NCBI RefSeq assembly: GCF_003334815.1
Contig: NZ_QOWO01000024.1
DNA: 64,000 nt
Origin: Escherichia coli
GTDB lineage: Bacteria > Pseudomonadota > Gammaproteobacteria > Enterobacterales > Enterobacteriaceae
Reading direction: 5' to 3' (one strand)
Shown here: positions 39,464 through 43,216 of the stretch, one piece after another
Position numbering within the stretch: the first letter of the stretch is position 1
How the letters are laid out: each line of letters opens with the position of its first letter
Translations under genes and position numbers: made by a program
Notes under the pieces: model-generated
The model's input: the letters and a program-made list of their open reading frames with translations, nothing else
What the model was told of the DNA's origin: nothing
Databases searched by the model: none

Positions 39464-42400
39464 ATGCGGATTATCTTTCTACGCAAGGAGTATTTATCTT
39501 TACTCCCGTCAATGATTGCATCTCTTTTCTCTGCTAACGGTGTCGCGGCGGTCACTGATTCATGCCAGGGATATGATGTCAAAGCGAGTTGTCAGGCCAG
39601 CAGGCAAAGCCTTTCAGGCATTACGCAGGACTGGAGTATCGCTGATGGGCAATGGCTGGTTTTTTCGGATATGACCAATAACGCCAGCGGTGGGGCCGTA
39701 TTTTTGCAACAAGGAGCGGAATTTTCACTATTACCAGAAAATGAAACTGGAATGACTCTGTTTGCCAATAACACCGTTACAGGAGAATATAATAACGGCG
39801 GGGCCATATTTGCTAAAGAAAACTCAACGCTGAATCTTACTGATGTTATTTTTTCCGGTAACGTCGCAGGCGGCTATGGTGGCGCAATCTATTCTTCTGG
39901 TACTAACGATACTGGTGCCGTCGATTTACGTGTCACTAACGCCATGTTTCGCAATAACATCGCTAATGATGGCAAAGGTGGCGCAATTTATACCATTAAT
40001 AATGACGTTTATTTAAGTGATGTTATTTTTGATAACAACCAGGCATATACATCAACAAGTTACAGTGATGGCGATGGCGGGGCAATCGATGTTACCGATA
40101 ATAATAGCGACAGCAAGCATCCTTCAGGTTATACGATAGTAAATAACACTGCCTTTACAAATAACACTGCCGAAGGTTATGGCGGGGCGATATATACCAA
40201 TAGCGTGACGGCTCCCTATCTTATTGATATTTCTGTTGATGACAGCTACAGCCAGAACGGAGGCGTGTTAGTCGATGAGAACAATAGCGCAGCAGGCTAT
40301 GGAGATGGTCCTTCCTCTGCGGCGGGTGGCTTTATGTATCTCGGCTTAAGTGAAGTTACCTTTGATATTGCCGACGGAAAAACGCTGGTTATTGGCAATA
40401 CAGAGAATGACGGAGCTGTTGACTCTATTGCTGGTACCGGGTTAATCACCAAAACAGGTTCCGGCGATCTGGTACTTAATGCAGATAACAATGACTTTAC
40501 TGGTGAGATGCAGATTGAAAACGGTGAAGTTACCCTGGGCCGCAGCAACTCCCTGATGAATGTCGGCGATACGCATTGCCAGGACGATCCGCAAGACTGC
40601 TACGGTCTGACGATAGGGAGTATTGATCAGTATCAGAATCAGGCTGAGCTAAACGTTGGCTCGACCCAACAAACTTTTGTGCACGCATTGACGGGCTTTC
40701 AGAATGGCACTTTAAATATCGATGCTGGTGGCAACGTTACTGTTAATCAGGGCAGTTTTGCTGGCATCATCGAAGGTGCTGGTCAGCTCACCATTGCGCA
40801 AAACGGCAGCTACGTGCTGGCAGGGGCGCAGTCGATGGCGCTAACCGGCGATATAGTCGTTGATGATGGTGCGGTGCTTTCGCTGGAAGGCGACGCGGCA
40901 GATCTTACCGCTCTCCAGGACGATCCGCAGTCGATCGTGTTAAACGGCGGTGTGCTCGATCTCTCTGATTTCTCCACCTGGCAGAGCGGCACATCATACA
41001 ACGATGGCCTTGAAGTCAGTGGCAGCAGCGGAACGGTTATCGGCAGTCAGGATGTGGTAGATCTTGCAGGTGGCGACAATTTGCATATCGGCGGCGACGG
41101 GAAAGATGGCGTCTACGTGGTGGTCGATGCGAGCGACGGGCAGGTAAGTCTGGCAAACAATAATAGTTATTTGGGCACAACACAAATCGCCTCCGGTACG
41201 CTGATGGTGAGCGACAACTCGCAGCTTGGAGATACCCACTATAACCGCCAGGTTATCTTTACCGATAAGCAACAAGAAAGCGTGATGGAGATTACCTCCG
41301 ACGTTGACACGCGTTCAGATGCGGCAGGCCACGGACGTGATATTGAAATGCGCGCCGACGGTGAAGTGGCAGTTGATGCGGGGGTAGACACGCAGTGGGG
41401 CGCACTGATGGCTGACAGCAGCGGGCAGCATCAGGATGAGGGTAGCACATTGACTAAAACGGGGGCTGGTACACTGGAGCTGACCGCCAGCGGTACAACG
41501 CAGTCGGCGGTACGTGTCGAAGAAGGCACCCTGAAAGGTGATGTTGCTGATATCCTTCCTTATGCTTCGTCACTGTGGGTTGGTGATGGGGCAACGTTCG
41601 TTACTGGCGCGGATCAGGATATTCAGTCAATTGATGCTATTTCCAGCGGCACTATCGACATCAGCGATGGTACGGTTTTGCGCCTGACCGGGCAGGATAC
41701 TTCCGTCGCCCTTAATGCCTCACTATTTAACGGCGATGGGACGCTGGTGAATGCCACCGATGGTGTGACGTTGACAGGTGAGCTTAATACCAACCTTGAA
41801 ACTGACAGCCTGACTTATCTTTCCAACGTGACGGTTAATGGCAATCTGACCAATACGTCCGGTGCGGTTAGCCTGCAAAATGGCGTCGCTGGCGATACGC
41901 TGACGGTAAACGGTGATTATACCGGCGGCGGTACGCTACTGCTCGATAGCGAATTAAACGGCGATGACTCGGTAAGCGATCAATTGGTGATGAACGGTAA
42001 TACTGCTGGCAACACAACTGTGGTGGTTAACTCCATTACAGGGATTGGTGAGCCGACATCGACAGGCATTAAAGTGGTTGATTTCGCAGCTGATCCCACG
42101 CAGTTTCAAAACAATGCGCAGTTCAGTCTGGCAGGCAGCGGCTACGTCAATATGGGAGCGTATGACTACACGCTGGTGGAAGATAACAACGACTGGTATC
42201 TGCGATCGCAAGAAGTAACGCCGCCATCGCCACCTGATCCAGACCCGACTCCCGATCCTGATCCCACGCCGGATCCTGATCCAACACCCGACCCGGAACC
42301 TACGCCTGCTTACCAGCCGGTGTTGAATGCCAAAGTTGGCGGTTATCTCAATAACCTGCGGGCGGCAAATCAGGCGTTTATGATGGAGCGACGCGATCAC

Positions 42401-43216
42401 GCAGGTGGCGATGGTCAGACGCTGAATTTACGTGTTATCGGCGGAGATTATCATTACACAGCAGCGGGGCAACTGGCTCAACATGAAGACACTTCTACGG
42501 TGCAACTTAGCGGCGATCTGTTTAGCGGGCGCTGGGGCACGGATGGCGAGTGGATGCTTGGGATTGTTGGTGGCTACAGCGATAACCAGGGCGACAGCCG
42601 CTCGAATATGACCGGAACTCGCGCCGATAACCAGAACCACGGTTATGCCGTTGGGCTGACATCAAGCTGGTTTCAGCACGGTAATCAGAAGCAAGGGGCC
42701 TGGCTGGATAGCTGGCTGCAATACGCGTGGTTTAGCAATGATGTTTCCGAACAAGAAGATGGCACAGATCATTACCACTCGTCGGGGATTATCGCCTCGC
42801 TGGAGGCGGGGTATCAGTGGTTACCGGGGCGTGGTGTGGTGATTGAACCGCAGGCGCAGGTGATTTATCAGGGCGTGCAGCAGGATGATTTTACCGCCGC
42901 TAACCGTGCGCGCGTGTCACAATCGCAGGGTGATGATATTCAGACGCGGCTGGGTTTACACAGCGAATGGCGTACCGCTGTTCATGTCATACCAACATTA
43001 GATCTGAATTATTATCACGATCCCCATTCGACGGAAATTGAAGAGGATGGCAGCACTATCAGTGACGATGCGGTGAAGCAACGGGGTGAAATAAAAGTGG
43101 GAGTCACGGGCAATATCAGTCAGCGAGTGTCCCTGCGCGGCAGCGTGGCGTGGCAGAAAGGGAGTGATGATTTTGCCCAGACGGCAGGGTTTTTGTCGAT
43201 GACGGTGAAATGGTAA
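39464..43216 (+). CDS. yfaL: Autotransporter (type Va) adhesin-like protein YfaL
   Basis: 1250-aa ORF; signal peptide; passenger with repeated GGA[IV] motifs typical of beta-helical passengers; PDPT-repeat linker; C-terminal beta-barrel ending MTVKW. Confidence 0.85.
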   Translation: MRIIFLRKEYLSLLPSMIASLFSANGVAAVTDSCQGYDVKASCQASRQSLSGITQDWSIADGQWLVFSDMTNNASGGAVFLQQGAEFSLLPENETGMTLFANNTVTGEYNNGGAIFAKENSTLNLTDVIFSGNVAGGYGGAIYSSGTNDTGAVDLRVTNAMFRNNIANDGKGGAIYTINNDVYLSDVIFDNNQAYTSTSYSDGDGGAIDVTDNNSDSKHPSGYTIVNNTAFTNNTAEGYGGAIYTNSVTAPYLIDISVDDSYSQNGGVLVDENNSAAGYGDGPSSAAGGFMYLGLSEVTFDIADGKTLVIGNTENDGAVDSIAGTGLITKTGSGDLVLNADNNDFTGEMQIENGEVTLGRSNSLMNVGDTHCQDDPQDCYGLTIGSIDQYQNQAELNVGSTQQTFVHALTGFQNGTLNIDAGGNVTVNQGSFAGIIEGAGQLTIAQNGSYVLAGAQSMALTGDIVVDDGAVLSLEGDAADLTALQDDPQSIVLNGGVLDLSDFSTWQSGTSYNDGLEVSGSSGTVIGSQDVVDLAGGDNLHIGGDGKDGVYVVVDASDGQVSLANNNSYLGTTQIASGTLMVSDNSQLGDTHYNRQVIFTDKQQESVMEITSDVDTRSDAAGHGRDIEMRADGEVAVDAGVDTQWGALMADSSGQHQDEGSTLTKTGAGTLELTASGTTQSAVRVEEGTLKGDVADILPYASSLWVGDGATFVTGADQDIQSIDAISSGTIDISDGTVLRLTGQDTSVALNASLFNGDGTLVNATDGVTLTGELNTNLETDSLTYLSNVTVNGNLTNTSGAVSLQNGVAGDTLTVNGDYTGGGTLLLDSELNGDDSVSDQLVMNGNTAGNTTVVVNSITGIGEPTSTGIKVVDFAADPTQFQNNAQFSLAGSGYVNMGAYDYTLVEDNNDWYLRSQEVTPPSPPDPDPTPDPDPTPDPDPTPDPEPTPAYQPVLNAKVGGYLNNLRAANQAFMMERRDHAGGDGQTLNLRVIGGDYHYTAAGQLAQHEDTSTVQLSGDLFSGRWGTDGEWMLGIVGGYSDNQGDSRSNMTGTRADNQNHGYAVGLTSSWFQHGNQKQGAWLDSWLQYAWFSNDVSEQEDGTDHYHSSGIIASLEAGYQWLPGRGVVIEPQAQVIYQGVQQDDFTAANRARVSQSQGDDIQTRLGLHSEWRTAVHVIPTLDLNYYHDPHSTEIEEDGSTISDDAVKQRGEIKVGVTGNISQRVSLRGSVAWQKGSDDFAQTAGFLSMTVKW
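42221..42307 (+). repeat. In-frame 18-bp tandem repeat encoding (PDPDPT)n linker inside yfaL
   Basis: ccngatccngacccnacn units repeated about 3.5 times, encoding PPSPPDPDPTPDPDPTPDPDPTPDPEPTP between passenger and beta-barrel. Confidence 0.8.

Follow-up and report, generated by a model that had tools for sequence, protein, structure and literature searches.

A proline-rich in-frame tandem repeat forms an acidic linker of variable length between passenger and barrel in the Escherichia coli autotransporter YfaL

The window analysed here is a stretch of 64,000 nucleotides from Escherichia coli (contig NZ_QOWO01000024.1 of assembly GCF_003334815.1). Its plus strand carries, at 39464..43216, the coding sequence of yfaL/ehaC, an AIDA-I-type (type Va) autotransporter adhesin of 1250 amino acids followed by a stop codon. 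An imperfect in-frame repeat of six codons lies within this gene. We consider it very probable that the repeat encodes a net-acidic spacer of X-Pro character, linking the passenger, at its autochaperone end, to the α-helix that plugs the barrel, and that the length alleles of this spacer arise by insertion and deletion (indels).

The repeat occupies positions 42221-42307 of the plus strand. It begins with CCG CCA TCG CCA, continues with four 18-nt units (42233..42304) and closes with CCT. The units read, in order, CCTGATCCAGACCCGACT, CCCGATCCTGATCCCACG, CCGGATCCTGATCCAACA and CCCGACCCGGAACCTACG; they are codon-phased and in frame with the open reading frame (ORF) 39464..43216. Translation of the whole stretch gives PPSPPDPDPTPDPDPTPDPDPTPDPEPTP, residues 920-948 of YfaL, in which the peptide unit PDPDPT occurs three times and PDPEPT once. 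The array is thus an in-frame tandem repeat whose unit length is a multiple of three and whose copies lie head to tail. The initial annotation had proposed an 18-bp repeat at this position in about 3.5 copies; inspection of the sequence, Tandem Repeats Finder (period 18, 3.9 copies, 75% matches, 0 indels, 42236-42306) and translation all confirmed the repeat itself, while its copy number is better put as four codon-phased units. The units share 73% mutual DNA identity, and all 29 of the pairwise differences between them fall at third codon positions, 26 being synonymous. The longest exact direct repeat in this allele is the 11-bp sequence GATCCTGATCC, present in two copies at 42254-42264 and 42272-42282 (42254..42282 on the plus strand), which is the substrate of an 18-bp duplication and deletion described below.

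The periodicity of the array was compared with that of shuffled sequences. The self-match at period 18 was 0.68, a value reached by none of 20,000 nucleotide shuffles and none of 20,000 codon shuffles, and the identity of the protein at period 6 was 0.83, reached by none of 20,000 residue shuffles. Because no shuffle of any kind matched the observed value, the periodicity is beyond chance and not a by-product of composition. Proline is every second residue of the linker from residue 924 onwards, and 16 of the 31 prolines of YfaL sit within these 29 residues. An ORF of 148 amino acids on the opposite strand (41954..42400, minus) was rejected as a gene; its Arg/Trp/Gly-rich product mirrors the proline codons, and no support for it was found.

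The identity of the gene as yfaL, already suggested by the initial annotation, was borne out by three lines of evidence. The protein aligned from residue 1 to 1250 with positions 1 to 1250 of the NCBIfam equivalog NF007285, scoring 2812.2 bits against a cut-off of 1459. RefSeq labelled every match to the segment used in the census below 'AIDA-I family autotransporter adhesin YfaL/EhaC'. The surrounding gene order is inaA, yfaE, nrdB, nrdA, ypaB, yfaL, ubiG, gyrA, yfaA; the order nrdA-ypaB-yfaL-ubiG-gyrA was read from an annotated genome carrying a 100% identical 321-nt segment, and the ORF layout of the window agrees with it. The copy of yfaL in the window is intact. Pseudogene flags elsewhere in the gene were encountered in strain 504239 ('frameshifted', with a linker segment 100% identical to that of the window) and in OkiPb01681 ('internal stop').

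The linker separates two parts of the protein. A 28-residue signal peptide for YfaL is listed in a paper describing a display toolkit (PMC13101318). The N-terminal part of the passenger (39689..40198, plus strand; residues ~76-245) contains Chlam_PMP-type repeats and six GGA[IV] motifs, located by regular expression at residues 76, 112, 139, 172, 205 and 240 and together spanning 76-243, so that the earlier description of the passenger as rich in this motif held. Pfam Chlam_PMP (two matches with E < 0.01), PATR and the NCBIfam POMP_repeat model matched the passenger. The autochaperone domain AC_1 (Pfam PF18883, E = 2.4e-18) covers residues 794-904 (41843..42175, plus strand) and matches the IcsA autochaperone structures 3ML3 and 5KE1 as well as domain 1 of AIDA-I (4MEE). 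The β-helix runs on past AC_1 to ...DWYLRS at about residue 915, and in an AlphaFold2 model its strands reach ...DWYLRSQE. A β-helical passenger ending in an autochaperone domain is consequently present, by the evidence of Pfam (AC_1, PATR, Chlam_PMP) and of the 3ML3 and 5KE1 matches.

The AlphaFold2 model comprised residues 794-1250 and was built with 69 sequences, giving a mean predicted local distance difference test score (pLDDT) of 93.5 and a predicted template modelling score of 0.89. Residues 920-948 (42221..42307, plus strand) were modelled as coil, with no secondary structure and the lowest pLDDT of the model (78-81). They are followed by a predicted pore-spanning α-helix at residues 956-970 (42329..42373, plus strand; pLDDT ~97) and by the outer-membrane β-barrel (42428..43213, plus strand), which was recognised by Pfam at residues 989-1228 (PF03797, E = 2.8e-34), by TIGR01414 and by domain 2 of 4MEE, the model strands extending to residue 1249. 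YfaL has the barrel and, as predicted by the model, the helix of a classical (type Va, AIDA-I-type) autotransporter. The placement of the repeat as a linker between passenger and barrel was likewise upheld by the Pfam domains on its two sides (794-904 and 989-1228) and by the modelled coil.

The prediction that linker length varies between strains was examined using the 321-nt segment 42100-42420 as a query against 5,426 complete E. coli genomes. The segment was present in 5,420 of these, with one copy per genome; one match came from a plasmid-typed record, and the segment was missing from the other six genomes. Class frequencies were obtained from counts within bands of identity and from two systematic samples, in each of which 59 genomes were drawn at regular intervals from the ranked matches. 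At 321 nt, the length of the window allele, were 78 of the sampled genomes (39 in each sample), followed by 28 at 303 nt (14 and 14), seven at 327 nt (3 and 4), three at 297 nt (2 and 1) and two at 309 nt (1 and 1). Approximately 66% of genomes therefore carry a 321-nt segment and approximately 23% a 303-nt segment. The identity bands placed ~1,200 genomes in the 303-nt class and ~1,350 in a B2-type 321-nt class, and 2,034 genomes carried a window-type allele at least 99% identical to the window segment. When synthetic alleles one unit shorter, or a natural three-unit allele, served as queries, rarer classes came to light. At least 22 genomes had 285 nt, nine had 306 nt and seven had 315 nt; 339 nt was present in two records of identical length, 345 nt in one genome (strain 1105) and three-unit B1 alleles in 10 genomes.

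There are thus at least ten in-frame segment lengths, from 285 to 345 nt, corresponding to linkers of 18-38 amino acids. Nineteen alleles were read from end to end. The left flank was always 191 nt and the right flank always 213 nt, so that every length change lies inside the linker. All 19 retained both the frame and the X-Pro alternation, and the indels measured 3, 6, 12, 18 or 24 nt and were bounded by short direct repeats. An identical repeat number in all strains, which would have contradicted the expectation of variable length, was looked for in the complete genomes and is not what they contain; units have been both gained and lost.

The common classes are distributed by lineage. Among the matches listed, all K-12 and O157:H7 records carried the 321-nt window-type allele; the B1 strains 55989, O103:H2, O111:H8 and O121 carried 303 nt; the B2 strains 536, PMV-1 and NU14 carried a distinct 321-nt allele starting NPTPPP; and strain 042 carried 309 nt. 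The flanks of the common length classes differ from one another by 5-39 substitutions per 380 nt. Most of the variation in linker length is old and follows lineages, and recent events are rare. Separately, a 4.83-Mb record labelled DH5alpha (NZ_CP026085.1) was observed to contain a B1-type 303-nt allele and is probably mislabelled; MG1655, C600, TG1, J53 and HMS174 all carry the K-12 321-nt allele.

Recent events were nevertheless detected as differences in copy number on otherwise identical backgrounds. The flank haplotype of the window (0 mismatches in 380 nt) was found with segments of 303 nt (UTME-3), 315 nt (UMNF18 and porcine enterotoxigenic E. coli (ETEC)), 321 nt and 339 nt (CFS3246), while the B1-type C7 haplotype was found with 285, 303 and 321 nt, equivalent to one, two and three units. 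The 339-nt allele of CFS3246 is an exact duplication of TCCTGATCCCACGCCGGA (window 42256-42273), an event that had been forecast beforehand from the 11-bp repeat, and comparison of APEC_AN-25 with MS6192 revealed the loss of the same 18 bp in APEC_AN-25. Between the O111:H8 strains 05-3004 and TW05614 there were 0 mismatches over 4,303 bp; the sole difference was an 18-bp unit belonging to a tandem of two perfect copies, a comparison that indicates, at the level of the aligned sequences, recent slippage. In B2 strains, a 12-nt subunit encoding DPTP had grown to three copies in strain 1105, and 12 nt had been lost from each of AR_0017 and KUN2017-0933, with a further 3 nt missing from AR_0017.

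The purity of the repeat may bear on the frequency of such events. Approximately 32 one- or three-unit variants were counted against ~1,200 two-unit B1 alleles, which possess an exact direct repeat of at least 17 bp, and ~10 variants against ~2,400 window-type alleles, which possess the 11-bp repeat. The O111:H8 allele is a perfect two-copy tandem; the B1-type allele of TUM18780 has a direct repeat of only 8 bp. Variants seem commoner where the repeat is purer, a trend that is only suggestive, the genomes not being independent samples. The sizes and boundaries of the indels suggest that they arise by replication slippage or by short-homology deletion and duplication.

A larger rearrangement also involved the repeat. 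In strain VTB97022v (NZ_CP178670.1), yfaL has lost 168 bp (56 amino acids) in frame. The missing stretch is bounded by the 12-bp repeat CTGATCCCACGC, of which one copy lies upstream in the autochaperone domain (42090..42101, plus strand; codons AADPTQ) and the other in the linker repeat (42258-42269). Lost with it are 44 residues at the end of the passenger and 12 residues of the linker.

We sought to establish whether the length differences might instead be artefacts of sequencing or assembly, through collapse or expansion of the repeat. In favour of this possibility, frameshifts occur within the repeat in some draft or long-read-only assemblies (P0035, P0036, P0038, P0063, P0071 and GPEC60-12-649), and draft contigs of Shigella sonnei stop within it. 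However, the array is imperfect and only 72-87 bp long, below the length of a single Illumina read, and all genomes used were of complete level; an array that fits within one read gives no cause for concern over assembly collapse. Moreover, alleles recur in several independent genomes (at least 22 for 285 nt, nine for 306 nt, seven for 315 nt and 10 for the three-unit B1 allele), and all in-frame classes differ by whole codons with the X-Pro pattern intact. Recurrence of this kind does not extend to the 339-nt allele (two records of the same length), the 345-nt allele (1105), the B2-type 309-nt allele (KUN2017-0933) or the 303-nt allele on the window haplotype (UTME-3). The need to exclude assembly collapse had been raised at the outset; given the read length and the recurrence of alleles in independent complete genomes, we reject collapse and regard an artefactual origin as exceedingly improbable.

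Several broken copies came to light in the course of these comparisons. In GPEC60-12-649 (NZ_CM160084.1) a B1-type repeat of three units has lost 11 bp, and yfaL is labelled 'frameshifted' in RefSeq; no other out-of-frame length was seen among complete genomes, and this one is either a real inactivating product of slippage or an assembly error. The proteins P0035, P0036, P0038, P0063 and P0071, from Logan run assemblies, are truncated forms of YfaL in which the frame shifts in the proline-rich repeat and a stop follows soon after, reflecting either sequencing errors in runs of C or real null alleles. Dozens of S. sonnei drafts have a contig of ~1.9 kb extending from about residue 302 of yfaL to varying points in the linker repeat (…CCCGATCCTGA), the linker allele in these drafts being PPSPPNPNPTPDPDPTPDP, with an Asp to Asn change; an insertion sequence or a deletion at or after the repeat likely accounts for these contig ends. 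Finally, a metagenomic contig (ENA ERZ1311791 NODE_12531; 5,005 bp, 2.3x coverage; protein P0046) encodes the YfaL autochaperone and the start of the PDP linker, after which come an Asn-rich stretch and then a tail, Lys-rich and Fn3-like, that resembles no autotransporter barrel. It is most likely an assembly chimera joined at the PDP-coding repeat.

A role for the repeat as a phase-variable (contingency) locus was also rejected, since its unit length is divisible by three and the repeat does not vary within the major clones sampled. Every allele class but the 11-bp deletion pseudogene has a length divisible by three, and the 2,034 genomes with window-type alleles (at least 99% identity) can hold no indel as large as 6 nt in this segment. 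The YfaL repeat is not hypervariable and is no phase-variation switch; almost all changes keep the frame.

To place the linker in a wider context, we performed a full-library search with residues 794-1250, which returned 3,540 matches. The best 148 representatives, of at least 430 amino acids and at most 50% mutual identity, were aligned, and the linker was taken as the stretch from the WYL motif to the helix. Its length in these homologues had a median of 30.5 amino acids and a range of 11-105. In 126 of the 148 the linker had a proline content of 25% or more; the median was 35%, compared with 1.4% in the rest of the module, and the linker was net acidic in 142. Many of the homologous linkers are themselves tandem repeats, built of PDPxPT, PEPEP, PPVD, DVTPP and other motifs. 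As far as these alignments can tell, a proline-rich acidic linker is not peculiar to YfaL.

Position, composition and analogy suggest that the linker acts as a stalk. Stretches of (X-Pro)n with charged X, such as the Glu-Pro and Lys-Pro repeats of TonB and those of procyclin, form extended, protease-resistant rods resembling polyproline II, and at the textbook value of ~3.1 Å per residue 18-38 residues would span ~55-120 Å if fully extended. Proline-rich repeats have been discussed as loosely structured or polyproline-II stalks (PMC8931430). The (X-Pro)n stretch of YfaL would accordingly be extended, stiff, polyproline-II-like, resistant to proteases and negatively charged, and may keep the folded β-helix of the passenger clear of the barrel mouth and of the lipopolysaccharide (LPS) layer or core. 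The likeness to TonB, with its (Glu-Pro)n and (Lys-Pro)n, and to trypanosome procyclin (EP/DP) consists in the strict alternation of proline with a charged residue; there is no homology, the cellular contexts differ and the comparison is one of analogy only. The Pfam procyclin model (PF05887) does match two YfaL homologues, P0074 and P0078, which share the same composition. The presence of the linker and its X-Pro alternation are probably under selection, whereas its length would be loosely constrained: the linker is conserved family-wide and variation between the units is confined to third codon positions, so that selection appears to keep both presence and character.

Some observations weigh against this interpretation. 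The spacer function is drawn only from composition and position, and the pLDDT of 78-81 across the linker is not a clearly disordered score. AIDA-I (4MEE), the closest solved homologue of the autochaperone and barrel module (E = 8e-36) and one that matches YfaL on both sides of the linker, has only ~10 residues from ...WYLTSHL to the helix, without the long proline-rich linker of YfaL; the secretion mechanism can thus do without a long linker. As to the origin of the alleles, that of the window is poorly suited to slippage, with 73% identity between units and no exact direct repeat longer than 11 bp, and slippage is read from its products, unit-sized indels at direct repeats, which RecA-dependent unequal exchange would yield equally. 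The genome counts, furthermore, are phylogenetically non-independent.

A precedent exists in TibA, a self-associating autotransporter of ETEC, in which a proline-rich domain (residues 627-677) lies between the junction region and the barrel (PMC3835316). TibA and YfaL share one architecture: both are AIDA-I-type autotransporters in which a proline-rich stretch connects the junction or autochaperone region with a helix and barrel embedded in the membrane, and the YfaL linker occupies this TibA-type position. The two differ in length (~50 amino acids in TibA, 18-38 in YfaL) and in motif, and a functional effect of deletion has been published for TibA only. In 2011, Cote and Mourez reportedly deleted the proline-rich region of TibA and abolished adhesion but not invasion. 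Such an effect raises the question of whether the proline-rich stretch of YfaL is itself a functional module, serving ligand binding or adhesion or acting as a processing site, instead of a mere spacer. The family-wide conservation of acidic X-Pro character is compatible with a binding surface. Against this, homologues vary widely in linker motif (PEP, PVD, PQP, DVTP and others) and in linker length (11-105 amino acids), which better fits a physical spacer; alleles of E. coli gain or lose a third of the linker without becoming pseudogenes; and a loss of adhesion upon deletion is also explicable by poor projection of the passenger. A binding or processing module is for these reasons given a low probability, and we retain the spacer interpretation.

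The length and sequence variation might alternatively be adaptive. Immune selection could diversify the linker as an exposed epitope, as has been proposed for the repeat regions of pertactin, or linker length could be matched to how thick the O-antigen or capsule layer is. In pertactin of Bordetella, the variable proline-rich repeats R1 (GGxxP) and R2 (PQP) differ in copy number between alleles and species, and this variation has been discussed in relation to vaccine-driven selection (PMC8931430). Both proteins carry proline-rich autotransporter repeats that vary on a slow, population time scale, and the R2 region of pertactin, loosely structured and unresolved in the crystal, recalls the predicted coil of YfaL. 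The R1 and R2 repeats are, however, described as large loops that join rungs of the β-helix within the passenger, whereas the YfaL repeat follows the autochaperone domain, and the motifs differ. To our knowledge, no vaccine-type selective pressure acts on YfaL.

Further points in favour of adaptation are that yfaL is named among positively selected genes in two genome scans (PMC9110714), and that the major length classes follow lineages (321 nt in K-12 and O157, 303 nt in the B1 strains O103, O111 and 55989, a different 321 nt in the B2 strains 536 and PMV-1, and 309 nt in 042). Lineage structure is nonetheless also what neutral inheritance predicts; the passages of PMC9110714 consulted place no selected sites in the linker; and alignments rich in indels inflate tests for positive selection. 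The linker adjoins the membrane and probably lies beneath the LPS layer. Tuning to LPS is disfavoured because rough K-12 and smooth O157:H7 share one common allele and because O111:H8, with a single O antigen, has both 285- and 303-nt segments. An adaptive origin of the length variation is in our view unlikely. We also consider it quite unlikely that linker length serves as a selectable ruler or epitope, with slippage adjusting the projection of the adhesin through LPS or capsule, or its escape from antibody, and with the X-Pro stalk a generic evolvable element across the AIDA-I-like subfamily (11-105 amino acids).

Elsewhere in the window, the only other array to score at least 50 with Tandem Repeats Finder was an 87-bp repeat at 36306-36474. 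It lies in the nrdA-nrdB spacer, where 1.9 copies with 96% identity contain palindromes of the repetitive extragenic palindromic/bacterial interspersed mosaic element type (GCCTGATGCGACGC...GCCGGATAAGGCGTT...).

The yfaL gene, its family, proline-rich linkers between domains and the repeat-number polymorphism of pertactin were already known. A literature search found no paper pairing yfaL with a tandem repeat or variable-number tandem repeat (VNTR), and the allelic series of YfaL may be unreported. Mutations in yfaL were recorded in one study of adaptive laboratory evolution and in one of long-term carriage, and were single-nucleotide changes, not repeat indels. The length variation of YfaL is an ordinary further example for this protein family. 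The practical value of the finding is modest: the display scaffold 'YfaL-T' (residues 786-1250) includes the linker (PMC13101318), and the natural alleles of 18-38 amino acids show that the spacer of this surface-display anchor can vary in length while the reading frame stays intact; nearly every E. coli genome has the gene, and its short in-frame VNTR could sharpen typing; and indels in the linker may well introduce alignment noise when yfaL is scanned for selection. The current understanding of autotransporters is unchanged by these observations. The survey of homologues does show that in this subfamily the autochaperone domain and the barrel are almost always joined by an acidic X-Pro linker, an element that has received little discussion.

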